From a bacterium (GTDB lineage Bacteria > Patescibacteriota > Patescibacteriia > UBA9934 > GWF2-40-263), in assembly GCA_020051955.1 (NCBI GenBank), contig JAGVQB010000045.1:1356-65355 (forward strand): 64,000 nt of DNA, in the 5' to 3' direction. How positions within the stretch are numbered: position 1 is the stretch's first letter; each line of letters starts with the position of its first letter. Position numbers and translations under genes: made by a program. The notes under the pieces are model-generated. The model searched no databases. It saw nothing but the letters and a program-made list of their open reading frames with translations, and was not told the DNA's origin. Of the stretch, positions 6,734 through 24,505 are shown one piece after another.

Positions 6734-7429
6734 TTATTTTTCGCTTTCTAACCAAGCTTTTAATAAAAAGATTGTCTCCGTTCGAAGCTTTGCTCGCGCC
6801 CAGTCTTTCCGCGGTTCGTTCAGCATCTCTCCGAGACCATCGAGGATGTGACGATTATCCATTTTTTCCAAAAGCTCTGTGCACTTAGCTAAAACTTCTT
6901 TAAACGGCATCTTTGCACGGCTCTCAACTAATTTTCTATTTATTGGCCAATTATTCTTCGCGAAAAAATACACATCGTAAACATCACGGCTCGTTTTTCC
7001 GATCCGCTCATACATCGCCATTAGTTTGTTGGCGAACATGTCCTCCTTGACCATTACTTGCATTGAGATACCAAGCAAAGTTTTTAATTCATACTTAGAA
7101 CCAAAATCCCTGCGGTTAACCTCAATCTTGATATTTTGAGATTTCAAATCGTATGAGATAACCGTGACGAGGTTGAATCGTTTGATTCTTGAATCAACAA
7201 CCTTGCCATAACTCATAGCTATTTTTTGTATTTTCTCAAATACTTCCTGCTTTTTATTTTCGTTTAAAAGGTCAAGATCGATACCAACTGAATTACGGGT
7301 CAAGTCATAAAACATTAAGGCGGCTGTGCCACCCTTAAACCCCAAATAGGGAGACAGCGAGGTATCAGAAAAAATATCTTTCAAGATTTGTAATAAGATA
7401 TTTTTGTGTTTCGGATAGTCTAATGTCAT
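6734..7429 (-). CDS. abiEii: nucleotidyltransferase AbiEii/AbiGii-family toxin (type IV TA system), 231 aa
   Basis: LGFKGGTAALMFYDLTRNSVGIDLDL matches the GGTAL...DLD nucleotidyltransferase signature of DUF1814/AbiEii. Size fits, and it sits directly downstream of an AbiEi-like gene. Local GC is about 32 %. Confidence 0.8.
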   Translation of the reverse strand: MTLDYPKHKNILLQILKDIFSDTSLSPYLGFKGGTAALMFYDLTRNSVGIDLDLLNENKKQEVFEKIQKIAMSYGKVVDSRIKRFNLVTVISYDLKSQNIKIEVNRRDFGSKYELKTLLGISMQVMVKEDMFANKLMAMYERIGKTSRDVYDVYFFAKNNWPINRKLVESRAKMPFKEVLAKCTELLEKMDNRHILDGLGEMLNEPRKDWARAKLRTETIFLLKAWLESEK

Positions 7430-7434
7430 ATGGT

Positions 7435-8031
7435 TTAATTATTGTCTTTGTAGTGTTTAAAATATTCTGCAACTTTTTTCCCCATCCTCTTATTGCGATA
7501 TATCGGCAAAATTTCAAAAACCTTGTCCCAATCCAAAACGTCCAAGTGATCGAAGTGATAATCCTTGCTGATATATATCCGATCCAAAAACGCTCGCTCT
7601 TTTGTCGCAGTAGAAATATCGTTTGTATGTTCAATCCCGATTGTATTGCTCAAAACATAATCTTTCATTCTTATAAAAGATATTTTTTGTCCGTCTGCTT
7701 CAATTTCCCTGGTAACATAAGAAGCAACAAAAATATTTTCATAGTACTGGAAGTTTATTCCTGTCCGAGTTAATACCGTTTCAAAACTGATGTATGAAGG
7801 CGTGTAGATTCGAGTAGCTAACTCAAAACGATCGTAGTTATTATCTTTGGCATAAATGCCACGATGGACTCTGATCAATTTTCCTCTTTTTACGTAATTG
7901 CTCAATCTCACCCGGACCTTTGCTTCTCCTTGTTCGCCCCACAACAAAGCAATGTCTTTGGTAGAAAAGACAGTTTTGGGAGATCTTAACAAGGATTCGA
8001 TGTATTGACCTTTTGTGGGTTTATTATCCAT
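7435..8031 (-). CDS. abiEi: AbiEi-family antitoxin / transcriptional regulator (198 aa)
   Basis: The C-terminal half (RVHRGIYAKDN...YTPSYISFETVLTRTGI) resembles the AbiEi antitoxin domain. There is a 5 nt gap to abiEii on the same strand, the canonical AbiEi-AbiEii operon order. Confidence 0.72.
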   Translation of the reverse strand: MDNKPTKGQYIESLLRSPKTVFSTKDIALLWGEQGEAKVRVRLSNYVKRGKLIRVHRGIYAKDNNYDRFELATRIYTPSYISFETVLTRTGINFQYYENIFVASYVTREIEADGQKISFIRMKDYVLSNTIGIEHTNDISTATKERAFLDRIYISKDYHFDHLDVLDWDKVFEILPIYRNKRMGKKVAEYFKHYKDNN

Positions 8032-8114
8032 ATGTTTACTGTTAGTAACCTTAAAGCTTACTTGCAGTGCAATTATATGCGACTATTGGAAAATAACAAG
8101 GTGGTGGAGCATAT

Positions 8115-8188
8115 ACACGACAATTTTTCTCACGATCGACGAAATTATTGTCAGGGAGATTTCCGTGACACATAAGGGACGATCGGAC
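8115..8188. repeat. right copy of the ~73 bp direct repeat flanking the AbiE cassette
   Basis: ACACGACAATTTTTCTCACGATCGACGAAATTATTGTCAGGGAGATTTCC...GACGATCGG; see the left copy at 6654-6727. Confidence 0.7.
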
Positions 8189-8385
8189 CTTGTGTGTCCA
8201 GGACAGTAGAACATACTCAACGATTGAAATATCAGGAAGCCCTGGAGAGGTTGGGTTCTTTTTGTTATGATCTTGAGGCTATGGCACGTCATTCTCACTA
8301 TTAAATCTGGCACGCAGGATATCCAACAAACCGATGACGCGATTGAGGCATAGGATGACGTGGGCACGGTTTATATAAACGAACT

Positions 8386-8865
8386 ATGGAAGGACGAATA
8401 ATCATGGGACTGGATCCAGGGTATGGTCGAATGGGCTTTGGCGTGATTTTTGTTGAGGGAACGAAACTCGAGCTGGTTGACTATGGTGTGTCCACGACGC
8501 TTTCTGGGGACACGATTGAGAATCGGCTTCTAAGTATCGCCAACGATTTGCATGATTTGTTCGCGCATCATCAGCCAGACGTTGTCGCGATTGAAAAGTT
8601 TTTTTTCGGCAAGAGCGCTTCAACCGCGATGAACGTCGCGCAAGCTCGAGGTGTCGCGTTGCTCATGGCAGCGCAATCAGGCACGCCTGTTTTTGAGTTT
8701 ACCCCAGCGCAGGTCAAGAAGGCATTGACAGGGGATGGCACTGCTGGCAAGGCCGCGATGCAGAGGATGGTAAAGGAATTACTTCATCTTCCTCATGTTC
8801 CAAAACCAGATGACGCCTCTGATGCTATCGCTGTTGCTATAACGGCGAGTACTAAGAGGTGGTAA
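8386..8865 (+). CDS. ruvC: crossover junction endodeoxyribonuclease RuvC (Holliday junction resolvase)
   Basis: RIIMGLDPGYGRMGFGVI (N-terminal catalytic Asp), VAIEKFFFGKSASTAMNVAQARGV and DASDAIAVAI. The start may instead be the ATG at 8401. Confidence 0.9.
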   Translation: MEGRIIMGLDPGYGRMGFGVIFVEGTKLELVDYGVSTTLSGDTIENRLLSIANDLHDLFAHHQPDVVAIEKFFFGKSASTAMNVAQARGVALLMAAQSGTPVFEFTPAQVKKALTGDGTAGKAAMQRMVKELLHLPHVPKPDDASDAIAVAITASTKRW

Positions 8866-8902
8866 AATGGTAACAAACTAAATATTGCTTGATTTAAAAA
8901 AT

Positions 8903-9202
8903 ATGATTGCTCCACTTAAGATATTTATTGACCGTTTAATTGAGGAAAAAGATCTTTTAGCTCTTGAACCAGAAGTGCTAAAACAGGTAAAAGCTGATCT
9001 TTCAGAACGTCTTGAGGATCGTATTAATGCGGCTGTTCTTAAGCATCTTCCACCCGACAAGCTTTCCGCGTTTGAAAAATTGCTTGATACTAAAGCGTCA
9101 GATGAGGAGATACAGAGGTTTTGTCGTGAGCAGATTCCGAATCTCGACGAAGTGATCGCGTCAACGCTCGTGGAGTTTCAGCTGACATACCTTCAAGTTT
9201 AA
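8903..9202 (+). CDS. small helical hypothetical protein (~99 aa), immediately upstream of the giant ORF
   Basis: ORF of about 105 aa with a coherent helical, charged composition. Start chosen at the ATG at 8903 (track starts at TTG 8885). No Shine-Dalgarno sequence and no recognisable family. Confidence 0.4.
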   Translation: MIAPLKIFIDRLIEEKDLLALEPEVLKQVKADLSERLEDRINAAVLKHLPPDKLSAFEKLLDTKASDEEIQRFCREQIPNLDEVIASTLVEFQLTYLQV

Positions 9203-9211
9203 TTATTCTGT

Positions 9212-12200
9212 ATGCATACGAACGAAGGCGCTCCTTCTGTTGTGGAAGGATCAGAAAGTACAAAAGCGAAGAAGAAGATTGTTATTGTTGAACACGCGGG
9301 AGCTATTGAAACTGAATCTCGTGATGCAGCCGAAGCTCACATGTCTGCTTCTAAAAAAGAGTTGAAAGGCGTGCGTGGAGTTTTTAAAAAAATTTGGAAG
9401 CATAATTTATTTCACGAGTATTATCGTCAAAAAGAAATTGCATTAGTGCGCGAGAAAATACTTAATACCAAAAGTCTTTTTGCAGGTGAGAAAGAAGCTC
9501 GTGTAGCGCATAAGGCGGCGATGGGCGCGCTAACTGATCGTTTTTTGCAGGAGTATGAAGAGGCGGTACACAAGGAAGCCGGGGAGTCGCGAGAAGTACT
9601 TGGGAACGAGGAGACCGATGTTGATACTCGGGAAGAGATACACAAAGTATTGAGAGATTACGCGGCTGGAAATTTGACGGAGGAAACATTTGAGGAAGAA
9701 CGTAACAGGATACTGTCAAAGCTTACTGGCTTGTCGCGCGAGGCAATTCAAAGCGAGGTACGACATACGGACAGCTTGCGTGAGGTCGCGCACGGACTGC
9801 GACAGTCGGTTGAGCATGGATCGTGTCTTGAAGACCTCGATATTGATTTTGATATCGTGATTGGGCGCGCTAAGTGTGGAGTCCGCACAGAAGCACAGTT
9901 TAATACGGTGGATCGTATTGTGGAGAAAATCCAATCAAGTCGCGTTGGAAAGTTTTTGAATGAGACAACTGTCGCGTCGGCAGTCGCGATTGCGTATTCT
10001 CTGACAGCTGGGCTGTCCCAACGCTTGGCGCGAAGTAAGGCGCTCGCTTGGGGGAGTTTCGGACTTACTGCCGCGATCAGCGGCGGTGTTGCCGCGGCAA
10101 GGGAGAGCAAACGAATTGAAGAAGAACGTCGGCAACACGGAAGGGAAATGGCAAAGGGGCAAACTTTTGAGGAAACTCAAACGCCACGTCGCAAAGAAAT
10201 GGAAAACTATCGGTATGAAACAAAAGACGCGTATGTGATCACACGCGAACTTTCAGACACCCTCGAATATGATTTGAAAGAGGCCGAAGCATTTTCTCGC
10301 GTTGTTGAAAAGTTGTCTGATATTGAAGCACGCGTTCGGCTTTCTGATCGCCACAGCATTGATCTTATTTCGTATTCCAGCGGAGATTTGGTTGAGAATG
10401 AACGTTTGAATCTGGATATTGCTCGCGCTAAGGCAAAGGTAAAGTTGCGTCAGATGTACGCGTCCGGGCAGATCAACCTTACAGAGGGAGAAACAATGGA
10501 TGGATTTTTGGCAAAGTCCGCTGATCTGCAGATGGAAATATTGACTAAGGGTGATGCGGGTATTGAGGAAAAGAATCGAATTTTTAGAAAGATGAAAACA
10601 AAGCGAGTTGTGGGAGCCGCGCTCAAGGGGCTGGGGACAGGTCTCGTGATTGGTGGTGTATTTCAGGAGGCGGTAGCGTTTTTTAGCGATGCGCAGAGCG
10701 GTGTGGTTGAAGGAATGGTCGGCATACCACATGAGGCAGGGGAGAGGATAACAGCGCTTGAGCGCTTGCGAATGTTTTTGAAAGGGGAGACGTTTGATAC
10801 TCCTTTGGTTAACAGTATCGAAACGCACGCACCAGACGGAAGTCTTTTGAAACTTCCAGAGGATATAGAGATAGTGCCTAATGCTGGAAACGCGAATGTG
10901 TTTGACTTAGTTCGTGACGGGGAAACGATCGCGTCTGGGCTTGAATGCAAAGACGGGGTACTCACCGCGGCTTCGGCAAATGTGGTTGAAGATGCTGGTG
11001 GTTTTGTCGCGGTTGATAGTCATCAAGAGATGGTATTAGTACCAGGCGAACGCACCGCCGTTGATGTGGCAGGGAGTCGCACGGATCTTTTTCATCGAAT
11101 TCATCGAACCCTTTGGTATGGCAATGACACGCCCAAACCCATTTTTGATAAAAACGAATTAAAATTGGATTGGGGAGGTGGGGGTGATGGGTTTGATGAC
11201 AATGGTAATTTTACATTCAACATTGCTCGAATGAGGGCAGACGGTTCTTTTCAGGATGGTTTTTCAGTTGACGCGCAAAAGGCGATGAAAGAAGGCAAGC
11301 TGAAAATGATTCTTTCTTTGACGCGAGATACGCAAAGAGAGGTGGTGGAGATTCCGATTGATGCTCATGGAAACGCGGCTGTTGATCCAAACAGTGAAAT
11401 TGGAAAAATGTTTTTTAGTCAGAAAGATGGCAAGGCAGTATTCCACGGCGCGTTCGCTGAGGTCGTGCAGTCAACAGGCGTGGGAGAAGACGGTGGGGAG
11501 AACGTGCGAATATTGGCAACCCACATCGGAGACGAATCCGCTGTGCGAGAAGTGATACCAGAGCCAGTATTGGTTCCAGAATCGAAAGTCGTCTCAATTA
11601 CCAATATCACCTTGCCGCCAGGCGATGATCTTTTTGTCGTTCCTCCGATGGTGATTCCTGTGTTCGGAAGAAAGCCACTTGAATCCACAAAACAGCCAAC
11701 AGTTCCCCCACTACGTTATACTAAGCCACCAGAAATTGGGATCGGGTATTATTACAATTCGTTTCCGGAACAATCTGAACAGCAATGTAAAGCACGCATG
11801 TCTGAATCCTTGCGTAATAATCCTGATGCGCAGCTTGATACTGTTAAGGAGGTTCGACAATATATCGAAAAACAGGATGAAAAATATCGCGAACAGATTA
11901 AATTGTTAGCCGGGCAAGCAGACCCAATGGAGAATGGCTGTAAAGTTGCGGTATGTATTCCAGCCGCAGGTCATCAAGAGGGAGGAAATATCTATCGCAC
12001 GCTTGAAAATTATACTCATCAGATAGCTTCTCGAGATTCGTTCGAGATTTTGATTTTAGTTAATCGCCCTGATGTTGATGAGGAGGGGAAGCGTGTTGAG
12101 CCAGATCAGACAATAAATGAGATTCAACGTTTCAAAAAAGCGTATCCCGATATGCCAGTGCGAGTTATGGAAGTAATCCTTCCAAAAGGACAAGCAAAAA

Positions 12201-13093
12201 TCGGCACTATTCGGAAACTTCTGACTGACTCGGCTTTGGTACGGTATCTCGCGCGGGGTTCAGCGGTGTCTTCTGATTTAATCCTTCTTAGTAACGATGC
12301 GGATAATAAAGGAATGGCTCCAGAGTACGTTGATAATTTTATTAAAAAGTTTGACAGCAATACGGATACTGATGCGTTTTTAGGTCAATTGGATTGGGAT
12401 CCAGAATCTTATATTCGAAACCCGCTTGTGCATGTTGGAACACGTTTTTTCCAGTACGTGCACGCCGTACTCCAACGGCGTTGGAAATCCGTTTTTGGTT
12501 CTTCTGGCGCTAGCTTTGCTTATCGCGCGAGTGTGTATGCGGCCGTTGACGGGTATACTGATGGCATGACAGGTGGAGAAGATTGTGACGTGGGTGGACG
12601 TATTAGGTTAGCACGTCGAGGGGCTAAGACTCACGTCGCAGTGAGGTACGCGGGGAATCGTGTTTCTCGCCTATACACATCCTCTAGACGCGCGGAGCGT
12701 GCTATTAAGGATGGGCTTTCGCCTTCTGAACAATGGACGCGAAAGTTCAGCGCGTTTGATGATGATGTACGCAAAGTGAAATGGGAACTCACTGGTGGAA
12801 TGGATTGGGATGATATTAGTAAGGTCGAAACTTTTGTTAATCAACTAGAGACGGTGTTGAATCGAACGATTACTCAAACGATGAATGATTCCATTGATCG
12901 TGTGGCTGTTACAAAAGCGCTTGGTTGGCTTGGGATTAGTTTTGAATTCAATAAGGACCGCGGTATTCGTATTGTAAATGCCGATAAGCTTATCAATGGG
13001 CTAAAGAAATATCAGGTCGAAGGATTAGATATGATGAAACGGAAAACTGGGGAGCTTTCTAAGAAAAGAAAGCGCGCTAAAACCGAGAGGTAA
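9212..13093 (+). CDS. giant 1293-aa protein: charged coiled-coil N-terminus, predicted TM segments, C-terminal GT-A-like glycosyltransferase domain
   Basis: Uninterrupted 3.9 kb ORF. Hydrophobic stretches include VASAVAIAYSLTAGL and VVGAALKGLGTGLVIGGVF. The C-terminal region (ILILVNRPD, SNDADN as a DxD motif, GGEDCDVG) resembles GT2 catalytic domains. Confidence 0.75.
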   Translation: MHTNEGAPSVVEGSESTKAKKKIVIVEHAGAIETESRDAAEAHMSASKKELKGVRGVFKKIWKHNLFHEYYRQKEIALVREKILNTKSLFAGEKEARVAHKAAMGALTDRFLQEYEEAVHKEAGESREVLGNEETDVDTREEIHKVLRDYAAGNLTEETFEEERNRILSKLTGLSREAIQSEVRHTDSLREVAHGLRQSVEHGSCLEDLDIDFDIVIGRAKCGVRTEAQFNTVDRIVEKIQSSRVGKFLNETTVASAVAIAYSLTAGLSQRLARSKALAWGSFGLTAAISGGVAAARESKRIEEERRQHGREMAKGQTFEETQTPRRKEMENYRYETKDAYVITRELSDTLEYDLKEAEAFSRVVEKLSDIEARVRLSDRHSIDLISYSSGDLVENERLNLDIARAKAKVKLRQMYASGQINLTEGETMDGFLAKSADLQMEILTKGDAGIEEKNRIFRKMKTKRVVGAALKGLGTGLVIGGVFQEAVAFFSDAQSGVVEGMVGIPHEAGERITALERLRMFLKGETFDTPLVNSIETHAPDGSLLKLPEDIEIVPNAGNANVFDLVRDGETIASGLECKDGVLTAASANVVEDAGGFVAVDSHQEMVLVPGERTAVDVAGSRTDLFHRIHRTLWYGNDTPKPIFDKNELKLDWGGGGDGFDDNGNFTFNIARMRADGSFQDGFSVDAQKAMKEGKLKMILSLTRDTQREVVEIPIDAHGNAAVDPNSEIGKMFFSQKDGKAVFHGAFAEVVQSTGVGEDGGENVRILATHIGDESAVREVIPEPVLVPESKVVSITNITLPPGDDLFVVPPMVIPVFGRKPLESTKQPTVPPLRYTKPPEIGIGYYYNSFPEQSEQQCKARMSESLRNNPDAQLDTVKEVRQYIEKQDEKYREQIKLLAGQADPMENGCKVAVCIPAAGHQEGGNIYRTLENYTHQIASRDSFEILILVNRPDVDEEGKRVEPDQTINEIQRFKKAYPDMPVRVMEVILPKGQAKIGTIRKLLTDSALVRYLARGSAVSSDLILLSNDADNKGMAPEYVDNFIKKFDSNTDTDAFLGQLDWDPESYIRNPLVHVGTRFFQYVHAVLQRRWKSVFGSSGASFAYRASVYAAVDGYTDGMTGGEDCDVGGRIRLARRGAKTHVAVRYAGNRVSRLYTSSRRAERAIKDGLSPSEQWTRKFSAFDDDVRKVKWELTGGMDWDDISKVETFVNQLETVLNRTITQTMNDSIDRVAVTKALGWLGISFEFNKDRGIRIVNADKLINGLKKYQVEGLDMMKRKTGELSKKRKRAKTER

Positions 13094-13105
13094 AGTTGAT
13101 TGAGT

Positions 13106-13828
13106 ATGAGCGGTGAATGCAGATTCAGTGTCGTCATTCCTTTTAAGGATGAAGAGGACCGTCTTCCAAATACCGTCAAACAGGTTTTGGAATATTTTTT
13201 TTTGAAGGGTGTGACGTTTGAAATTATTTTGGTTGATGATGGGAGCGTTGATCAAACGGTTGCGCGAGTGAGCGAGTTTTTGAAAGATACGCGCGTGAGG
13301 CTGTTGAGGCACGAGGTAAATAAGGGGAAGGGCGCGGCGATACGGACTGGAGTCTTGGATAGTCGGGGAGAAATGGTTTTGTTTATGGACGCGGATATGG
13401 CAACGCCCATTGAGGAGTTTGGGAAGTTGCTTGTGGCAATTCGTGGCGGAGCTGATATCGCGATTGGATCGCGTGCGCACAAGCAATCGCAAGTTACTAA
13501 ACGACAGCCAGCGCACCGCGTCGTGATCGGCAAGATTGGAAACGCGCTTATTCGCTTGGTGCTTGGCCTTCCTTTTTCCGATACTCAATGCGGGTTCAAA
13601 ATGTTTATGCGCGCGACCGCGGTTGATCTATTTTCTGATTTAAAATTTCTACGTTGGAGTTTTGATTACGAAGTATTGTATCTTGCGCGACGGCACGGGT
13701 ACAAAATCGTGGAGGTGCCAATCGTCTGGCACAATATGCCAGGGTCGAAGTTTCATCCTGTCAAAGACGCGGTTCGTTGCTTTTGTGATTTGTTGAGTAT
13801 TAAGTGGAGGTACATTTTCAAAAAATGA
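13106..13828 (+). CDS. GT2-family glycosyltransferase, polyprenyl/dolichyl-phosphate hexose synthase-like (DPM1/ArnC-like)
   Basis: FSVVIPFKDEE...IILVDDGSVDQT...NKGKGAAIRTG...LFMDADMATP...QCGFK are typical GT2 DPM1-like motifs. Start set at the ATG at 13106; the track starts at TTG 13100. Confidence 0.88.
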   Translation: MSGECRFSVVIPFKDEEDRLPNTVKQVLEYFFLKGVTFEIILVDDGSVDQTVARVSEFLKDTRVRLLRHEVNKGKGAAIRTGVLDSRGEMVLFMDADMATPIEEFGKLLVAIRGGADIAIGSRAHKQSQVTKRQPAHRVVIGKIGNALIRLVLGLPFSDTQCGFKMFMRATAVDLFSDLKFLRWSFDYEVLYLARRHGYKIVEVPIVWHNMPGSKFHPVKDAVRCFCDLLSIKWRYIFKK

Positions 13829-13829
13829 T

Positions 13830-15545
13830 ATGGATTTTATTTTGAGCATTGCGACGTTGCAGATTCTTGCGGCATCGAAATTGATTCTGTTCGCGTCGTT
13901 TGTCGTGTTTCTGTTTTTGTTAGCTCGTTATAACCGACCATGGGCGTACGTGGTTTTGATTACAATCTCGGTCTCTGCCACGTATTACGTTTTGAGTGCG
14001 CCATTGCAGACTTTTTTTTGGGGTGGGCGGGGAGATGAAACTTTTGTTGCCGCGTATTTATCTCGCGTCTTGAATGGCGAGTTCCTGTCTGATTTCTATT
14101 ACTTCGGACTGCCACCATTTTACCCGCCATTGTATTTTTGGATCACGGGTTTTGTCAGCAAGCCGTTCGTTGCCTCCGCCATTGGCGCGGGAAAAATCGG
14201 CGTGCTAATCACACTGCTTGCATGGTGGGTGGTTCCATATTTTTTACAGAGACTGTTTTACTGCAAGTGGTTCCTTCGACAGGAAACGGAAAAGACAGTC
14301 ATCTCATCGCAGTGGTTTTGGTTCCTGGTCCCGACCTTCTTATTTGTCCTTCTGGATTTCGATAGCATTATTTTGAAACCTTACGAAACACTCCCAGCCC
14401 TGCTGTGTGTTTTGTTCATCGGCGTGTTCGCGTCAATGCTTGGATGGAGCAAGTGGGAGGCGAGACATTATTTGACGATCGGGTTTTTCGGTGGCGCGCT
14501 TTTCCTATCATATTATTTTTGGTGGTTCATTCTGATCCCAGTCATGTTTGCACTCGCGGTTTTGTCGAAAGATAAGTGGACGAATATCTTGCGCGTGGTC
14601 GGGGTTGGAGCAGTGATGTTTGTCGTGGCATCTCCCTATCTTATTCCGTTGTTGGGATCATTCGCGGGAGGAATCGAGAATTGGCAAGCGATCTTTTTCA
14701 TTCCATCAGACTTTTGGTCTTTTGCCCCATGGGGTGTGTCTTCCCTTCGCGGATTGGTTTGCTTGCTTGGGTTGTTTGGTCTGATTCGTTACAGAAAGAA
14801 TCCGTTTATCAGAGCCAACTTGCTTGTGTTGGGGATGGCGTACGCGTATCAAGGTGTTAGCATGATTTTGTTTCTCTTGGGTGGAAAACCAATCCAAGCC
14901 GCAAAACCATTCTTGTTTCTTGGCACTGCCACGTTGTGCGTTGGCGCGGCCGCGGCAATAATTTCGATTTTCAAATTTCTGTCGAGACGCCTTGACACAC
15001 AATCCGTTAAATCCGTCGCACTGGTGATGGTGATAGTCTTTGTGTCTCTTATGCCGCAAATTCGGTTTCTTGATGACCCAAAAGTTTTGCAACAGATAGA
15101 GTCTGATTTGCTAGAAACAGGGGACGTGTATCTGGCGGAGAATATTCAAAACACCGTTCCAGATTGGAATGAGCGCGCGTGGTTATCAAGTGGTACGGCT
15201 GGGTTGAACGCTTATTTGCCAATTCATTATTTTCTCGCGCACAACCCGCACTTTAGCCATCAGGCCGCGAAGTTTTCAGAGCGTTTTGATCGAGTCGTGA
15301 AACTCGCGAACGCTGGTTCCTCGGAGCGCTTTGTCGCGATAGCGGACGAGCAACCACGGATTGACGCGCTACTTTTTTTCAAAGACCCAGGCGCGCAAAC
15401 GTACCCGCTTTTTTTCTGGGAGGACAATTACCCAAACGGTGGAAAAGAAATCAGGATCGAGATTGACCCTGATTGGGTGTCAGAAAAGTTTTGGGATATG
15501 AGGCACGAGGATGATGATTGGGTGGTATATACGAGGAAGGAGTAA
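13830..15545 (+). CDS. polytopic membrane protein, probable GT-C glycosyltransferase partner of the GT2 (ArnT/PMT-like; inference)
   Basis: 571 aa with at least 10 predicted TM helices and a soluble C-terminal domain. Its start comes 2 nt after the stop of the upstream GT2 gene. The GT2 plus GT-C pairing is a classic polyprenyl-P-sugar synthase/transferase couple. Confidence 0.6.
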   Translation: MDFILSIATLQILAASKLILFASFVVFLFLLARYNRPWAYVVLITISVSATYYVLSAPLQTFFWGGRGDETFVAAYLSRVLNGEFLSDFYYFGLPPFYPPLYFWITGFVSKPFVASAIGAGKIGVLITLLAWWVVPYFLQRLFYCKWFLRQETEKTVISSQWFWFLVPTFLFVLLDFDSIILKPYETLPALLCVLFIGVFASMLGWSKWEARHYLTIGFFGGALFLSYYFWWFILIPVMFALAVLSKDKWTNILRVVGVGAVMFVVASPYLIPLLGSFAGGIENWQAIFFIPSDFWSFAPWGVSSLRGLVCLLGLFGLIRYRKNPFIRANLLVLGMAYAYQGVSMILFLLGGKPIQAAKPFLFLGTATLCVGAAAAIISIFKFLSRRLDTQSVKSVALVMVIVFVSLMPQIRFLDDPKVLQQIESDLLETGDVYLAENIQNTVPDWNERAWLSSGTAGLNAYLPIHYFLAHNPHFSHQAAKFSERFDRVVKLANAGSSERFVAIADEQPRIDALLFFKDPGAQTYPLFFWEDNYPNGGKEIRIEIDPDWVSEKFWDMRHEDDDWVVYTRKE

Positions 15546-15554
15546 TTTCCAGTT

Positions 15555-15653
15555 ACCGTTATCTACAGATTACAGCATGGCGAATACGAATGTCGTGCGA
15601 ATATGCGAATAGGATCGTCCCATTAGCATATTCGCACGAGATTCGCATTAGTT
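15555..15653 (-). repeat. copy 1 of a ~100 bp palindromic interspersed repeat (IR-element) with CTGTAATCTGTAGAT box
   Basis: Near-perfect reverse complement of 48331-48430. It contains the internal palindrome TCGTGCGAATATGC...GCATATTCGCACGA and lies between convergent genes. Confidence 0.75.
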
Positions 15654-15664
15654 AAATTTCAGAT

Positions 15665-16066
15665 TCATACGTTATCCGTTTTCCTGAACGTCCACAGCGT
15701 GTTCATTATAAAGTTCCATATCAATACAATCGCCACGATGAAAACCTTCGCGGCAACATACCAGATTCCAACTTTTAGGAAGATGAGCATCAGCAGGCTG
15801 TTGATCGCGAAGCCCACGACAGAAACGCACAAAAATTTTGTGAATTGATGAACGACGCGTTTATTTTTGTCTTTATAAGTCCAGAGCTTATTCCACGAGT
15901 AATTATTGATGACCGCCAGCAAAAAGGAAATTGTGTTGGCGATAAGCACTGGCCAAGCGAAAACTTCCACGAGAAATATTAGCACGACAAAGTCAATTAG
16001 CGTGCCGCTAAATCCAACGGCTGAATATTTTAGAAATCGTCGTGTGTATATTTTTTTTGCCAGCAT
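15665..16066 (-). CDS. GtrA-family membrane protein (polysaccharide/glycolipid translocation)
   Basis: FLKYSAVGFSGTLIDFVVLIFLVEVF...NNYSWNKLWTYKD has the typical GtrA (PF04138) layout with 4 TM helices. Start set at the ATG at 16066. Confidence 0.8.
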   Translation of the reverse strand: MLAKKIYTRRFLKYSAVGFSGTLIDFVVLIFLVEVFAWPVLIANTISFLLAVINNYSWNKLWTYKDKNKRVVHQFTKFLCVSVVGFAINSLLMLIFLKVGIWYVAAKVFIVAIVLIWNFIMNTLWTFRKTDNV

Positions 16067-16152
16067 ATTAGAAGTTTGACAGCATGTGGTATAGACCACG
16101 CTTCTTTATTGAAGCTTTAAACTCACTTTAAACTCACTTTAAAGTGAGTTAT

Positions 16153-17661
16153 TCACAGGAGTTTTCCTTGCAATAGTCCGGATTTTTTGGCTTCTTCACT
16201 TAAAAACCTTGGGTGTAATTTGAATGCCACATTGGGGTCTTGTTTTTTTTCGGTAGTTCGTACTAACACTTCTTTTCCAATCAATTCTTCGAGCCTTGCG
16301 TTAGTAAAAGGTCTTGACCTACCAAGAAGTTTTTCGACCTCGCTTGGGCGCACCTCCCCCTTCTCTTCAATGAGCTCAAGAATATTGTAGTGGGCTTCTT
16401 CCAAGCCGAGTTTTGTCAACTCGTTTTCATTGATGAAAGGCTTCGGTTCGGTCTTAATTTTTTCAGGGACAAGGGTTGCACGAAATAACACGCGGAACGC
16501 ACCAGCTTCTTCAAGAAATTCCGGTTCAGGCAGCCGAACGTCCCGCATCACTCTACGCATTCTTTCGATACCTGAGCCGCGTTTTTCCATGAATCCTCCC
16601 ATGCGGACAAGTGCTTCCGCGATCGTTGCGTTTCGTGAGCGGGGAGCGAAGTCGCCCCGTATAACAATTTCAATTGTTAATGGTGGTATGAATCCGCCTG
16701 GATTGAGTATAGACACCGACGTGCCCCTGACTCGAAGATGAGTCTCAGCTAATGAGTCGCGATAGTCCCGGTGTACAACCGCATTGACCACGGCCTCTCT
16801 AAGAGCCTCAAGAGGGATGACAGGAGTGTTAATTCGTCGGAAGCCGGCAATACGCGCGGCGACCGGAATATGACGCCGGATGAAAGCTTCAACGGCCCGA
16901 AGTTGATCGAAGAGCGTTCCACCGAATGTCTGGAGGTCATCCCAATCGTTTTGTTCCTCGTTCATTTTCACATCGGCCTTTATAACGGCATGAGGCAGAA
17001 AGTTTTGCGGATTTTTACCAAACAATAAGATTCCAGCGATGGTTGGCACAAAATTTCCATCCGTTCTTTTACTGACGAATCCTTCCCTCGAAAGAAGAGT
17101 CATTAAATCTTTCGTAGAAAATTCGTTAAAGCTCGTCTTTTTTAGATAACCTTCCGCGGCGTTCAAATCAAGGTCTTCGACACTGGCCGCTTCGAGTAGC
17201 ATACGATCTTGCGGATCAGGGCTTCGATCACGACACATCTGGGCGATCTGGTCATCAGAGGCCTCGATATTGGAACTGCCAATGCGAACAAAAGGTCTTT
17301 CGTAGCCGCGGATTTTATATGGTGGGCGGGGACCCTTTGGACAACGAACGATTACGATTTTCTGGCCTTTGAATTCCGTTATCTCTACGCTAGGTGAAAC
17401 ATCCAAATCAGGAACGTTGCCCCTCAATTGTTGGAAAAAACTATGCTCCAATTGTTGCGGGTTTGGCACTCCAACAACCTCGCCTGTCTTATCACGAATG
17501 CCAAAAAGAATTGTTCCGCCCTTGGTATTGTAAAAAGCAGTCAACGATCGCATGACGTGCAATTTATGTTCTTGCGCTTCGGTAGCCGAGAGATCAGCCT
17601 TGAGTTCGATGTGGTCATTCTCAAGCCCAGCTATTGCTTCTTGGATTTCAATTTCTGTCAT
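16153..17661 (-). CDS. Schlafen/AlbA_2 (divergent AAA) domain protein with C-terminal HATPase_c_4-like domain; putative regulator
   Basis: 502 aa. The N-terminal IELKADL...GGTILFGIRDKTGEVVG pattern is typical of AlbA_2/divergent-AAA domains. The C-terminal half resembles the RecG-C-terminal-like ATPase domain fused to a wHTH. Confidence 0.7.
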   Translation of the reverse strand: MTEIEIQEAIAGLENDHIELKADLSATEAQEHKLHVMRSLTAFYNTKGGTILFGIRDKTGEVVGVPNPQQLEHSFFQQLRGNVPDLDVSPSVEITEFKGQKIVIVRCPKGPRPPYKIRGYERPFVRIGSSNIEASDDQIAQMCRDRSPDPQDRMLLEAASVEDLDLNAAEGYLKKTSFNEFSTKDLMTLLSREGFVSKRTDGNFVPTIAGILLFGKNPQNFLPHAVIKADVKMNEEQNDWDDLQTFGGTLFDQLRAVEAFIRRHIPVAARIAGFRRINTPVIPLEALREAVVNAVVHRDYRDSLAETHLRVRGTSVSILNPGGFIPPLTIEIVIRGDFAPRSRNATIAEALVRMGGFMEKRGSGIERMRRVMRDVRLPEPEFLEEAGAFRVLFRATLVPEKIKTEPKPFINENELTKLGLEEAHYNILELIEEKGEVRPSEVEKLLGRSRPFTNARLEELIGKEVLVRTTEKKQDPNVAFKLHPRFLSEEAKKSGLLQGKLL

Positions 17662-17737
17662 AGTTTTGTGTCATAGGTTCCCAAAAGGGGCTTCCAGTTA
17701 TTCATATACTCCGGAGATATTTTTCGTCCGCTCGGTT

Positions 17738-19066
17738 TTAGTAATTGAATCCTTGAACCCAAAATGCTTGTACTAGGAAAAAGAGATAGGGGGCTACGAG
17801 CAATCCTAGAATCGGCAACGCGACTCGGTTTTTTTGCGCGCTCGCGAATCCGTAGATAATTGGGAATAAGTAAACAGGATAAATGAAAATTGATTTTACG
17901 ATCCCCATATCAAAATAATGGTATCGATAACTGAAGTAGATCAACGCTGAAAAGAAAGACGCTGTGATGCCAATGCCAAGCAGGGGGAGAACGTGCTGTT
18001 TTTTCTTGAGTGCGAGCGCGATCATTACGACCATACCCCACAACATAATCACAGCGGGCACAATCGCGAGCCAAACGAGTTTCGATGTGAGAGAAAAGTT
18101 TTGTTTTGTTACGTACGTGTTGCTCACGGTTGTGCGCACGAGATCCTCCGCGGGCGCTTGTGCGATCAGGTCATCATTTTCCATCATTCCATAGTAGTCA
18201 TAAAACGAATCCGCGTAGAACATACTCGAGAACGCGCGCCCACCAGAGTACCAGTATGGAAATTTGAAAATGTCAGCGTCAAACCATGTGTAGTCTTTTA
18301 CTCTCTCGTCGAGCTTGAGTGGCATCGGTTCCAAAAAGTTCTGATTGTTTATCGATGGAGCCGCAAGGACATTTTGCGCGCGATAGATTTGCCAGGGCAG
18401 AACAAGAATCACAACAGGCACGATGAAAAGGGCGAGTTTGATCCACGCGGATTTTTTGTGGCGCCTAAGCAGATCAATCATTAGTGTGAGACCAACGAAC
18501 GCGATCGGGATGACGGCGGTAACTTTTGTCAAAAGTGCCAGTCCGCAGACAATGCCAAGGGCGAGTGTATTTTTCCGAGTTGTTTTTTCTTTCCGTTGAT
18601 AATCAATCAACAGGGTGATAATCAGAAAGATGAAGAAGTAATTCAACAGTTCGTTTGTCAAAAAGGTTGACGCCTCGGTCATTGCTGGCAACAGACTCAA
18701 CATGATAAACGAGGATAGGATCGCGAGCTTGTTCTTTGTTGCTTGTTTGATGATTCTGTAAACAAGAAAACTCACGCCCAAGCTCAAGACCACTTGCGCC
18801 AGACTCAACGTCTTCAAAATTGGTTTGATGTCTTCTGTAAACAACAAAACGATTTTCGCCACGCCCGCGTAGATCAAATAATACAAAGGTTCATGCCATG
18901 CCACATAGTTATCCTCAATTGATGGGAAACGGTTTTCTTGGGCGAGCGATAGAATATAATCAATGTGCCCACCGCCGTCGTAACCCCAAAACGGGTTGAA
19001 GTGCCAAGCGTTGTGGATGCGAAATATGATGAGAAAGATTGTAAAAAAAATTAAACATATTTTCAT
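17738..19066 (-). CDS. GT-C family membrane glycosyltransferase (ArnT/PMT, GT39/83-like)
   Basis: 442 aa polytopic membrane protein. The first periplasmic loop carries WHEPLYYLIYAGV, reminiscent of the E-x-PPL-YW motif of ArnT/PMT enzymes. Confidence 0.65.
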   Translation of the reverse strand: MKICLIFFTIFLIIFRIHNAWHFNPFWGYDGGGHIDYILSLAQENRFPSIEDNYVAWHEPLYYLIYAGVAKIVLLFTEDIKPILKTLSLAQVVLSLGVSFLVYRIIKQATKNKLAILSSFIMLSLLPAMTEASTFLTNELLNYFFIFLIITLLIDYQRKEKTTRKNTLALGIVCGLALLTKVTAVIPIAFVGLTLMIDLLRRHKKSAWIKLALFIVPVVILVLPWQIYRAQNVLAAPSINNQNFLEPMPLKLDERVKDYTWFDADIFKFPYWYSGGRAFSSMFYADSFYDYYGMMENDDLIAQAPAEDLVRTTVSNTYVTKQNFSLTSKLVWLAIVPAVIMLWGMVVMIALALKKKQHVLPLLGIGITASFFSALIYFSYRYHYFDMGIVKSIFIYPVYLFPIIYGFASAQKNRVALPILGLLVAPYLFFLVQAFWVQGFNY

Positions 19067-19114
19067 AAAGGCAACATAAGAATAATTGTAAAAGGTGAAT
19101 AATACAAACTGAAA

Positions 19115-19150
19115 TATTAAAAGCCCACCAGAGAATGGTGGGTTTGCGTT
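19115..19150 (-). terminator. rho-independent terminator downstream of pyrB
   Basis: CCCACCAGAGAATGGTGGG hairpin (19124-19142), followed on the minus strand by TTTTAATATTT. Confidence 0.6.
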
Positions 19151-19156
19151 TATGTC

Positions 19157-20119
19157 TCAGGTTGCGTGTCGCGCGTGCTTCCCGCGGTTGCGCGGCGGGA
19201 GGATCATTGAGAGAAGCGCCATGCGGACATAGAGACCGTTCTTTGCCTGAAGGAAGTACGCCGCGCGTGGATCACCATCGATCTCCACGGGGATCTCGTT
19301 GTTGCGTGGAAGTGGGTGCAAGATGATTGAGCCTGGCTTCATCCGTGCGACCAATTCTGGCGTGAGGCAGTAGTCACTACCGTCTGACGAGACACCCTCG
19401 ACCCCTTGATGTCGTTCCTTCTGCACGCGGGTCATGTACACCACGTCCGCGTCGTCGATTACGTCTTGGAGATGCTCGCTTTCGAATATACCCAGCCTCC
19501 TCATCGCGAGTTGAGTTCGAAGATTCTGTGGCAGTCGCAGCGCTCGCGGTGAGATGAAGCTCATTCGCGTTTGCGCGAGGTCCAGTAGGTGCGCGAGCGA
19601 GTGGACGGTTCTGCCGTACAGATGATCGCCAACGAATGCCACGTGTAGGTTTTTTGGATCTCCGATTTTTTCCACGATCGTGAAGAGATCCAGGAGCGCC
19701 TGCGTGGGATGCTCGCCGTTTCCATCACCAGCGTTGATGATTGGTACAGGACTCACGGCGGCGGCGCGCGCGGCGGCTCCGAGTTCTGGGTGGCGCAAGA
19801 TGATTGCGTCCGCATATCCACCGATCACGCGTATCGAATCTTCCAGTGTCTCTCCCTTGGTAGCGGAGGAGAAATGCCCCGCGCTCTCGGTTCCGATGAC
19901 CCTGGCGCCTTGAAGTTGCGCGGCAGTGTCAAACGATAGACGTGTGCGCGTTGATGGTTCGTAGAAGATCATCGCCACCACGCGACCCACGAGCACTGGT
20001 TCGCACAGTCCGTGATCCACTCCGAAGCGCATTTGGCGCGCTCGGGTGAAGATCTCCTCGATCAGCCTGGGGTCTTGGAATTGGTCCGCACTTAGGACAT
20101 GCTGAAGTTCTGTTCCCAT
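19157..20119 (-). CDS. pyrB: aspartate carbamoyltransferase catalytic subunit
   Basis: Contains the STRTR and HPTQ carbamoyltransferase motifs. ATG at 20119 is preceded by AGGAGG (20123-20128). The track's upstream extension across the tRNA region was rejected. GC is about 59 %, above the local background. Confidence 0.9.
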   Translation of the reverse strand: MGTELQHVLSADQFQDPRLIEEIFTRARQMRFGVDHGLCEPVLVGRVVAMIFYEPSTRTRLSFDTAAQLQGARVIGTESAGHFSSATKGETLEDSIRVIGGYADAIILRHPELGAAARAAAVSPVPIINAGDGNGEHPTQALLDLFTIVEKIGDPKNLHVAFVGDHLYGRTVHSLAHLLDLAQTRMSFISPRALRLPQNLRTQLAMRRLGIFESEHLQDVIDDADVVYMTRVQKERHQGVEGVSSDGSDYCLTPELVARMKPGSIILHPLPRNNEIPVEIDGDPRAAYFLQAKNGLYVRMALLSMILPPRNRGKHARHAT

Positions 20120-20228
20120 TCTTACCTCCTTGAAACCAGGGAGAGTATATCGGGGATAAAAAGTTTGGGCAACAGAGGTTTCTCTCTTGCCAGGGCATAA
20201 AAGATAAGTTAGTATTTTGGGGAAATAG

Positions 20229-20303
20229 GCGGGTATCGTATAGCGGTTATTATTCCAGTTTTCCAAACTGGTGATGCGGGTTCGACTCCCGCTACCCGCT
20301 CCA
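20229..20303 (+). tRNA. tRNA-Gly (anticodon TCC), 75 nt
   Basis: Hand-folded cloverleaf: acceptor GCGGGTA/TACCCGC, anticodon stem CCAGT/ACTGG, loop TTTCCAA, T-arm GCGGGTTCGACTCCCGC, and an encoded CCA. Confidence 0.85.
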
Positions 20304-20402
20304 TCCCGTTCAAACATTGCGCCATCACCGTTAAACCGTTTGGAAGTGACAATGTCACTTCCTGTGGGGTTTACCGATTATGTCGCGGAGTTTGAACGGG
20401 AT
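20303..20402 (+). repeat. MITE-like ~100 bp element, copy A (13 bp terminal inverted repeats ATCCCGTTCAAAC / GTTTGAACGGGAT)
   Basis: Abuts the 3' end of tRNA-Gly. It is about 80 % identical to 46304-46403, with shared termini and a shared core CATCACCGTTAAACCG...GGTTTACCGATT. Confidence 0.7.
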
Positions 20403-20416
20403 CCATTTATCAACAC

Positions 20417-20470
20417 GGGACGTAGCTCAGCCCGCTTGTGCTCCCGCCATTAATGGATGCGCGGCTGGGA
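20417..20470 (+). pseudogene. tRNA-Pro 5' fragment (pseudo-tRNA)
   Basis: GGGACGTAGCTCAG matches the first 14 nt of the downstream tRNA-Pro, and GAGCGCCTG matches its D-stem/anticodon-stem junction. Foreign sequence lies in between, and there is no T-arm or acceptor 3' half. Confidence 0.45.
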
Positions 20471-20512
20471 GCGCCTGATCCACGGGTTTGGTCTGAAATA
20501 AAAACTTAATAT

Positions 20513-20588
20513 CGGGACGTAGCTCAGTAGGTAGAGCGCCTGGTTTGGGACCAGGAGGTCGCAGGTTCGAGCCCTGTCGTCCCGACCA
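20513..20588 (+). tRNA. tRNA-Pro (anticodon TGG), 76 nt
   Basis: Acceptor CGGGACG/CGTCCCG, anticodon stem CCTGG/CCAGG with loop TTTGGGA, T-loop TTCGAGC, discriminator A and encoded CCA. Confidence 0.85.
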
Positions 20589-20740
20589 TTCGACTACCGT
20601 TGTTTTTTACAACGGCAGTCGAATGTCCCGAGCGAGCGCTAGCGAGCCGAGGGGCTGGTGGGTAACAACCGCTCATGGTCTGCGACCGTGTTGTGAAAAG
20701 AAGAGACTGAGGGTTCAAGACTCACTGGCTTGACCAGACA

Positions 20741-20768
20741 AAAAAATCGACGATCGTCGATTTTTTTG
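20741..20768. terminator. bidirectional rho-independent terminator
   Basis: AAAAAAATCGACGATCGTCGATTTTTTT: a perfect palindrome flanked by an A-run and a T-run. Confidence 0.65.
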
Positions 20769-20812
20769 TCATCAATAACGTTTGGCAGAAGGCAGGTTAA
20801 ACATTCAATTTT

Positions 20813-20840
20813 AAAAACGGATCTATTCGATCCGTTTTTA
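20813..20840. terminator. bidirectional terminator at the 3' end of tRNA-Phe
   Basis: AAAAACGGATCTATTCGATCCGTTTTTAAA. Confidence 0.6.
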
Positions 20841-20842
20841 AA

Positions 20843-20917
<75 letters not shown>

Positions 20918-20983
20918 AAACAACTTTCAGAATTGGCAATCTGCCTAAACAAATGTGGCCCACCACGTCGCTCGCGAGCGACG

Positions 20984-21060
20984 TGGTGGGCGTGGATGGA
21001 CTCGAACCATCGACCTCAACATTATCAGTGTTGCGCTCTAACCACCTGAGCTACACGCCC
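20984..21060 (-). tRNA. tRNA-Ile (anticodon GAT), 77 nt
   Basis: The reverse complement reads GGGCGTGTAGCTCAGGTGGTTAGAGCGCAACACTGATAATGTTGAGGTCGATGGTTCGAGTCCATCCACGCCCACCA. The 32 bp hairpin at 20959-20990 overlaps the CCA end and acts as a terminator. Confidence 0.85.

Positions 21061-22601: not shown

Positions 22602-24505
<1,904 letters not shown>

Follow-up and report, generated by a model that had tools for sequence, protein, structure and literature searches.

The window analysed here, a stretch of 64,000 nucleotides (nt) from contig JAGVQB010000045.1 of a member of the Patescibacteriota (assembly GCA_020051955.1), carries between ruvC and pyrB a gene for a giant protein of 1293 amino acids (aa) next to a set of glycosyltransferase (GT) genes. 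We think it fairly probable that these genes represent two independent modules lying side by side. As module A we denote the cassette of a gene for a small DUF5663 protein (8903-9202, + strand) and the gene for the giant protein (9212-13093, +). Module B is a glycosylation cluster of a GT2 enzyme (13106-13828, +), two GT-C-type membrane proteins (GT-C1, 13830-15545, +; GT-C2, 17738-19066, -) and a small membrane protein of the GtrA family (15665-16099, -). The adjacency of the two modules is specific to the lineage of the window. Open reading frames (ORFs) were listed and translated in six frames, and the window proteins were run against Pfam, NCBIfam and PADLOC. All ORFs named in an initial annotation of this sequence were found in the order given there and on both strands, with one correction: GT-C1 does not overlap the stop codon of GT2, as the TGA of GT2 ends at 13828 and the ATG of GT-C1 lies at 13830, leaving a spacer of 1 nt.

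That the modules can be separated was observed on L050, a 39-kb contig from the Joint Genome Institute (JGI), which was reached through a homolog of GT-C2. Its gene order rpoC, ruvC, GT2, GT-C1, two small ORFs, GtrA, GT-C2 and pyrB matches that of the window, and the orthologs share 72% (RuvC), 62% (GT2), 72% (GT-C1), 64% (GtrA), 67% (GT-C2) and 67% (PyrB) identity with their counterparts. On this contig ruvC abuts GT2, the GtrA ortholog overlaps the end of GT-C2, and DUF5663, the giant and a Schlafen-like gene found in the window are all absent. The comparison indicates that the four glycosylation genes are a conserved unit in the clade and that the cassette is an independent element at the ruvC/GT2 junction.

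The converse was seen from the side of the giant. A set of 46 giant loci, 39 of them contributed by scanning a single genome of each GTDB species, was compared by searching the ten proteins of the window with phmmer against all six-frame ORFs of these loci. Of the 46 loci, 45 have DUF5663 directly upstream of the giant, and the remaining one starts at a contig edge. The two genes are 9 nt apart in the window and 9-18 nt apart in four called loci, and they overlap by 17 nt in L005. When all neighbouring ORFs of 45 loci were clustered all-against-all, no family besides DUF5663 occurred in more than seven loci; DUF5663 is the sole recurrent neighbour family and a conserved partner of the giant, and not the incidental 99-aa ORF for which it had been taken. 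The encoded protein is small, helical and acidic (20 Asp and Glu versus 13 Lys and Arg) and matches PF18908 with an E-value of 1e-11 (45.6 bits; cut-off 23.7). Its ORF can be extended to a TTG at 8885, giving 105 aa, and homologs have 99-101 aa.

Genes of module B are rare next to the giant. GT2 and GT-C1 follow it only in L006, where the closest homolog of the giant (P0002, 57% identity) is encoded and which alone repeats the order ruvC-DUF5663-giant-GT2-GT-C1; GtrA, the Schlafen-like gene and GT-C2 were found in none of the 46 loci. L001, L003, L005 and L007-L046 contain the cassette without adjoining GT2, GT-C or GtrA, and GT2-like ORFs were detected in L007 and L018 only, 2-4 kb upstream of the cassette. 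In the five giant loci that were tabulated, what lies downstream is unrelated (RBFA/IF-2, a stand-alone Pkinase gene, ABC transporters, FtsH), the Pkinase gene standing immediately downstream of the giant in L003.

The initial annotation had described one glycosylation locus of seven genes built around the giant, which would serve the adjacent pathway as scaffold or as substrate-specific transferase. The genes do share a glycosylation theme, those on the + strand are tightly spaced (6-12 nt between the giant stop and the GT2 start, 1 nt between GT2 and GT-C1), and L006 repeats this arrangement. We nevertheless regard a single locus as quite improbable, since L050 keeps the four cluster genes in order without the giant, the cassette has no GT2, GT-C or GtrA next to it at 44 further giant loci, DUF5663 is the only neighbour that recurs, and other members of the giant family have exchanged the GT-A head for GT9 or non-GT tails. 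Conserved synteny with the cluster, the comparison which the annotation had proposed, was thus missing across the giant loci, and the role as scaffold or dedicated transferase of the cluster could not be upheld. Some observations do weigh against two independent modules. Homologs of GT-C1 and GT-C2 at 48% identity or less lose GT2 and GtrA as neighbours. Gene order in the Candidate Phyla Radiation (CPR) generally shows poor conservation, which makes absent synteny weaker evidence than it is in other bacteria. In the window and in L006 the giant ends only 6-29 nt from the GT2 start on the same strand, and in these two the giant and GT2 could still be co-transcribed or show some functional interplay.

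The gene for the giant is real and has over 120 full-length homologs. Its product gave no match in Pfam, NCBIfam or PADLOC, and four sub-pieces compared with Pfam at E≤10 produced noise alone, apart from a sub-threshold match to PF13632 on the C-terminal piece. Neither the single sequence (phmmer) nor three family profiles (A1, A2 and A5) matched anything significant in the PDB. A HMMER search with aa 1-840 against 1.84 billion representatives (E≤1e-3) led to 998 clusters at 50% identity, 586 of them with E≤1e-30, and nearly all were aligned over residues ~15-830. BLASTP analysis of 120 homologs likewise showed that the region common to all of them is aa ~20-830 and not the GT domain; we refer to this region, encoded at 9269-11701 (+) and composed of a helical part and, after it, a beta-rich domain, as the N-module. 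The sources of the homologs are named Minisyncoccia, Falkow-, Moran-, Nomura-, Kaiser- and Uhrbacteria, Parcubacteria or Paceibacterota, and a few short contigs from metagenome-assembled genomes bear other titles. The family appears so far to be almost exclusively patescibacterial (CPR, mostly lineages of the Parcubacteria type). CPR genomes often encode large hypothetical proteins. This family is large, real and uncharacterised: a literature search on DUF5663 or PF18908 found no mention, and one on giant glycosyltransferase proteins of the CPR found nothing on the giant family.

The last ~400 aa of the giant probably form a sugar-transferring GT-A domain, as judged from its predicted structure and motif conservation. 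An AlphaFold2 (AF2) model of aa 801-1293, based on a family alignment of 66 sequences, had a mean predicted local distance difference test (pLDDT) score of 87 and a predicted template modelling (pTM) score of 0.86. Comparison of this model with the PDB by Foldseek yielded 105 matches at E≤1e-3, and among the 50 matches listed all were GT-A glycosyltransferases, mostly of family GT2, with a probability of 1.00. The top match was PcManGT (6yv7, 3.6e-8), and others among those listed were hyaluronan synthases, TarS/TarP, BcsA, the chondroitin polymerase K4CP, chitin synthase and GpgS. The fold of aa ~905-1180 (11924-12751, +) is predicted to resemble GT2-family GT-A enzymes such as PcManGT, TarS/TarP, K4CP and the catalytic domains of hyaluronan, cellulose and chitin synthases. 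It also shares with them a DxD motif after strand beta-4 and a block G.N.a.R...Y..VGGY.......ED..LG. Translation verified the two acidic motifs which had been noted before, SNDADN at aa 1027-1032 (12290-12307, +) and GGEDCD at aa 1121-1126 (12572-12589, +). In the 66 homologs S1027, N1028, D1029, A1030 and D1031 are each conserved in at least 90%, as is E1123, and D1124 is invariant; the candidate catalytic base would come from this second acidic motif (G..ED). In the AF2 model D-A-D follows the strand of aa 1024-1027, the canonical position of DxD. The GT-A assignment of the initial annotation therefore holds, as far as the structure prediction it had called for can show.

Several findings speak against this assignment. 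The head lies below all Pfam and NCBIfam thresholds for GTs; the best Pfam match on the isolated C-terminal piece was PF13632 (Glyco_trans_2_3) with 15.5 bits against a cut-off of 27 bits (E 0.015). A few homologs of the giant do carry precomputed matches to PF13641 or PF00535. A profile of the 66 family sequences reached the GT2 enzyme 6yv7 in the PDB at E ~1 only. An Asp after beta-2 is usual in GT2 enzymes, but the giant has VNRP at this position (family consensus VNHP), a difference to the GT2 family which suggests that donor binding may be atypical. The head further differs from the GT2-family enzymes in being C-terminal to an 830-aa module of no matched fold that is paired with DUF5663. 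A processive synthase was considered and rejected: unlike BcsA, hyaluronan synthase and chitin synthase, the giant lacks a transmembrane (TM) channel and a conserved QxxRW behind the ED motif. The sequence QRRW at aa 1087-1090, which had prompted the idea, precedes ED, and the family consensus shows no conservation of it; no hydrophobic segment follows aa 500.

The head is not the constant part of the family. In a survey of 221 members a profile detected the GT-A head in 142, and 17 carried instead a tail of the heptosyltransferase type (GT9, GT-B fold), for which Pfam PF01075 was confirmed on P0286. Another 20 members (P0074, P0097-P0112 and others) have an alternative tail of ~600 aa, a further 20 a Lys/Glu-rich repeat tail, and the remaining ones are singletons or truncated. 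At least five members of the giant family have a Pkinase domain fused C-terminally. In the ~600-aa tail the motifs D.DA..C...ELAG, DTS and DHH...SDR.TSA.K were seen by eye and recall DHH phosphoesterases, a resemblance for which sequence searches of Pfam and the PDB gave no support. The identity to the query declines in step for the head (26-53%) and the N-module (30-75%). Such parallel divergence suggests that head and N-module are inherited together vertically and that domains are occasionally replaced, rather than shuffled rapidly as cassettes.

Conservation within the N-module was followed in a subset alignment of 56 sequences. The module matched no solved structure and no known fold. AF2 predicts helical bundles in which the longest helix of the giant has 41 residues, a pattern that does not bear out the label 'coiled-coil' given to it previously. 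Family-wide hydropathy revealed three conserved, moderately hydrophobic helices rich in Ala and Gly. The first two (aa ~250-272 and ~278-297) form a hairpin (aa 250-297; 9959-10102, +) with the loop RLARSK between them, in which AF2 gave a pLDDT below 50 at aa 263-282. The third (aa 465-486; 10604-10669, +) has a Kyte-Doolittle value of 1.69 and a family-averaged peak of 1.5, and ends with Q485-E486, both conserved in at least 90%, with E486 invariant in the 56 sequences. The beta-rich domain (aa ~510-800 by AF2 secondary structure; 10739-11611, +) contains the conserved motif WY.NDTP..FDKNELKL.WGG, and W635, N638, T640, D646, N648, E649, G665, E750 and T770 are invariant or nearly so.

From the hydropathy profile we infer that the hairpin may insert into the membrane. 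The position of the termini is suggested by other family members: a Pkinase (P0018, P0021, P0022, P0031) or J-domain (P0014) follows the GT-A head with no hydrophobic segment between them, and N-terminal extensions carry many charges and lack a signal peptide. These fusion partners and extensions would place both ends of the giant in the cytoplasm, where they appear to reside. One member, P0288, has a C-terminal YkuD L,D-transpeptidase domain (aa ~1229-1427) behind an extra hydrophobic stretch, RKRLKGMVLALVVTSNFGVG, which is preceded by basic residues. By eye this stretch is likely a TM span, though it falls under the hydropathy threshold used. YkuD L,D-transpeptidases are extracytoplasmic enzymes, and the domain links the N-module to peptidoglycan chemistry. 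A difficulty for this topology, and for the earlier label 'TM', is the odd number of hydrophobic helices, as three membrane spans cannot be reconciled with two cytoplasmic ends. Either the third helix or the hairpin would be monotopic or re-entrant, or some of the helices would be buried in an oligomer.

The constant N-module with exchangeable C-terminal heads, and the small acidic helical protein encoded immediately upstream, also recall a delivered effector. The cassette would then resemble a polymorphic toxin directed against the host of an episymbiotic CPR cell, with the N-module and its hydrophobic helices for trafficking or translocation, a glycosylating-toxin head and DUF5663 as chaperone or targeting factor. 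The large clostridial toxins are glycosylating toxins which combine GT-A domains bearing DxD with hydrophobic translocation regions, and this precedent counts in favour of the idea. We consider it highly improbable. The parallel divergence of head and N-module is unlike the swapping of cassettes among close relatives in polymorphic toxins, no immunity-like gene recurs downstream, neither a signal peptide nor a known secretion domain was found, and the YkuD fusion with its additional hydrophobic segment suggests a resident membrane protein.

Genes directly downstream of the giant at 14150-16189 in L019, 6060-8195 in L021, 14389-15846 in L022 and 15736-16542 in L011 encode the motifs GD..DR, GNHD and GH, identified by eye, which are typical of calcineurin-like metallophosphoesterases; those of L019, L021 and L022 belong to the small neighbour family that occurs in no more than seven loci. 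Together with the fused or adjacent Ser/Thr kinases these neighbours hint at phospho-regulation of the giant family. The N-module might accordingly be read as a membrane-associated hub for organisation or signalling, such as an envelope or division platform under Ser/Thr phospho-control, with the GT-A domain as just one of several accessory activities, e.g. for O-GlcNAc-type protein modification. As this idea would require, it is the N-module that stays constant across the family, and its fusion to J-domains and YkuD would fit as well as the kinases fused to it in at least five members or encoded directly downstream in L003. However, a GT-A head with conserved residues of catalytic type is present in about two thirds of the members, so that for this clade it is no dispensable accessory, and no fold or motif of the N-module suggests a cytoskeletal or signalling function. 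A hub with an accessory GT-A domain is therefore unlikely in our view.

Returning to two separate modules, we infer topology, donor, acceptor and physiological role for each of them in the following way. In module A the N-module and DUF5663 would hold the giant at the cytoplasmic face of the membrane, where the GT-A head would glycosylate an acceptor with the help of a divalent cation and with a nucleotide sugar as donor. This acceptor would most likely be a precursor or polymer of the cell envelope and less likely a protein. An envelope-type acceptor is favoured because of the YkuD and GT9 fusions and of TarS/TarP as structural neighbours; the associations with kinases, phosphatases and J-domains keep a protein target or a regulatory role alive. 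Large membrane-associated cytoplasmic proteins in which helical spacers are joined to GT domains and a kinase-fold terminator are known from O-antigen assembly of the WbdD/WbdA and WbbB type. The giant resembles them by analogy only, in its helical regions joined to a GT domain and in the kinase fusions of its family; it differs in that no sequence or fold similarity to them was detected and no long coiled coil is predicted.

As a tentative extension, DUF5663 and the N-module could possibly constitute an undescribed Patescibacteria-specific, membrane-associated platform with a new fold, which recruits interchangeable heads (GT-A, GT9, a possible phosphoesterase, kinase, J-domain, L,D-transpeptidase) to the cytoplasmic face. 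If this were true, the platform would be a lineage-specific machine for envelope assembly or regulation, substituting for envelope or division functions missing from the reduced genomes. The CPR or Patescibacteria account for a large share of bacterial diversity, and little is understood of how they build and decorate their envelope or attach to their hosts. The cassette is the more valuable result of this analysis, with ~1200 residues lacking Pfam coverage and a strictly conserved partner gene, and its catalytically plausible GT head (aa ~850-1293, DxD) offers a concrete handle on a CPR-specific family. Nothing at the locus yet indicates an unexpected mechanism, and lying next to glycosylation genes in a single genome is here no evidence of a shared pathway.

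Module B is an ordinary glycosylation cluster, conventional and expected in its composition. GT2 (240 aa from ATG, or 242 aa from a TTG at 13100) matches PF00535 (Glycos_transf_2, 1e-31) and belongs to the type of polyprenyl-phosphate sugar synthases. Its nearest solved relatives, Pyrococcus DPMS (5mlz, 1e-18), GtrB (5ekp) and ArnC, are all polyprenyl-phosphate glycosyltransferases. The protein is short and has no TM region, and the NCBIfam model of PpgS aligns to it with positions 12-225 out of 226 but scores below the cut-off. GtrA (133-144 aa) matches the family PF04138 (GtrA_DPMS_TM) at 2.5e-26 with 92.6 bits against a cut-off of 26.1. GT-C1 (571 aa) shows a Pfam match to AftA_N (5e-13, 49 bits) and aligns with Mycobacterium tuberculosis AftA (8if8) at an E-value of 7e-9, aa 46-546 against 103-613. 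It belongs to a family of ~565 aa with ~100 homologs, of which all named ones come from Patescibacteria or Parcubacteria. GT-C2 (442 aa) exceeds the Pfam thresholds of PMT (3e-11), PMT_2 (1.5e-9) and DUF2142 (1.3e-9) and is part of a PMT_2/ArnT-like family of Patescibacteria; the loop motif WHEPLYY reported for it was found in its translation. Five homologs of GT-C2 (P0333, P0337, P0340, P0347 and P0349; 680-709 aa) are fusions with a GT2 domain (PF00535) that is 26% identical to the GT2 of the window. As read from these sequences, the fusions are a direct link between a DPMS-like synthase and a PMT_2-type transferase within one polypeptide. The view that GT2, GtrA and GT-C make up a lipid-carrier glycosylation set therefore holds, in agreement with the Pfam and PDB matches, the five fusions and the same four-gene order in L050.

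For module B a mechanism along known lines is proposed, in which the soluble, DPMS/ArnC-like GT2 would load a sugar onto polyprenyl phosphate, GtrA would serve as the membrane partner of GT2 and/or as flippase, and the AftA-like and PMT_2-like GT-Cs would pass the sugar, on the outer side of the membrane, to polymers of the envelope or to proteins. The combination of a GT2, a GtrA-family protein and one or more GT-Cs is shared with the three-component systems GtrA/GtrB/GtrX, CsbB/GtcA/YfhO, ArnC/ArnT, GacI/GacJ and PpgS/Rv3632/Rv3779 (PMC8035078, PMC3485146, PMC11127046), and GT2-GT-C fusions among relatives of GT-C2 add to the likeness. In multi-component transmembrane glycosylation, cytoplasmic GT-A enzymes can act with a separate small membrane protein (PMC8035078). 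The short GT2 without TM region is in this respect similar to GacI and to PpgS of the PpgS/Rv3632/Rv3779 system, which work with such a partner (PMC3485146, PMC8035078). In contrast to the three-component systems, one GT2 and one GtrA are present here for two GT-C subfamilies (AftA-like and PMT_2-like), GtrA is convergent and separated from GT-C2 by the Schlafen-like insert, and the host is a CPR bacterium with a reduced set of envelope genes. AftA itself is a galactan 5-O-arabinofuranosyltransferase; GT-C1 resembles it in the nearly full-length alignment and the AftA_N match, but the similarity is low, and the window supplies a DPMS-like GT2 of the hexose type and not the decaprenyl-phospho-arabinose pathway. 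The labels 'arabinofuranosyltransferase' on homologs of GT-C1 were rejected as evidence, as they are name transfers only. For annotation it is useful that a genome of the Parcubacteria type has a complete lipid-carrier glycosylation route with two GT-Cs.

Between GtrA and GT-C2 lies the Schlafen-like gene (16153-17661, -), which encodes a protein of 502 aa with SLFN_AlbA_2, HATPase_c_4 and MarR-like parts (Pfam, 4e-20 and 5e-16). This protein also matches the PADLOC models pAgo-associated (3e-23) and SIR2-PNTD (6e-19). The gene is missing between GtrA and GT-C2 at the orthologous site of L050; it is an insert outside both modules, perhaps with a role in defence or regulation.

A scan of 8000-20500 for promoters and terminators gave counts at the level expected from shuffled sequence (17 versus 15.6 and 18 versus 15.0) and is thus uninformative on operon structure. 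The sole convincing terminator-like element of the region is a GC-containing hairpin with a T-tract at 19121-19145 (10 bp in the + strand scan, 7 bp in that of the - strand) between pyrB and GT-C2, which would part pyrB from the transcription unit of GT-C2 and GtrA.

The setting of the locus is chromosomal and housekeeping, with rpoB, rpoC and an AbiEii/AbiEi pair upstream and a tRNA cluster and the 16S rRNA gene downstream. On the upstream side, the ruvC gene (8386-8865, +; Pfam RuvC, 1e-46) is separated from rpoC by the AbiEii/AbiEi toxin-antitoxin (TA) pair (6734-8031, -), which lies in a stretch of low GC content (0.416). At the same junction L006 has a HicA/HicB pair (3070-3586) and L050 neither TA pair, and the rpoC/ruvC junction looks like a hotspot for TA insertion. 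On the downstream side, pyrB (19157-20317, -) matches OTCace_N and OTCace (2e-41 and 6e-27). The 5' end of this long ORF is overlapped by a tRNA-Gly gene (20229-20303, +), and its Pfam match begins only at aa 73; the true start of pyrB is probably an internal Met near 20119. Genes for tRNAs Gly, Pro, Phe and Ile are clustered at 20229-21060. The 16S rRNA gene (22602-24505, -) measures 1904 nt, compared with 1533 nt of the bacterial small subunit (SSU) model of Rfam, an excess which implies one or more insertions of ~370 nt in total; insertions in 16S genes have often been reported for the CPR.

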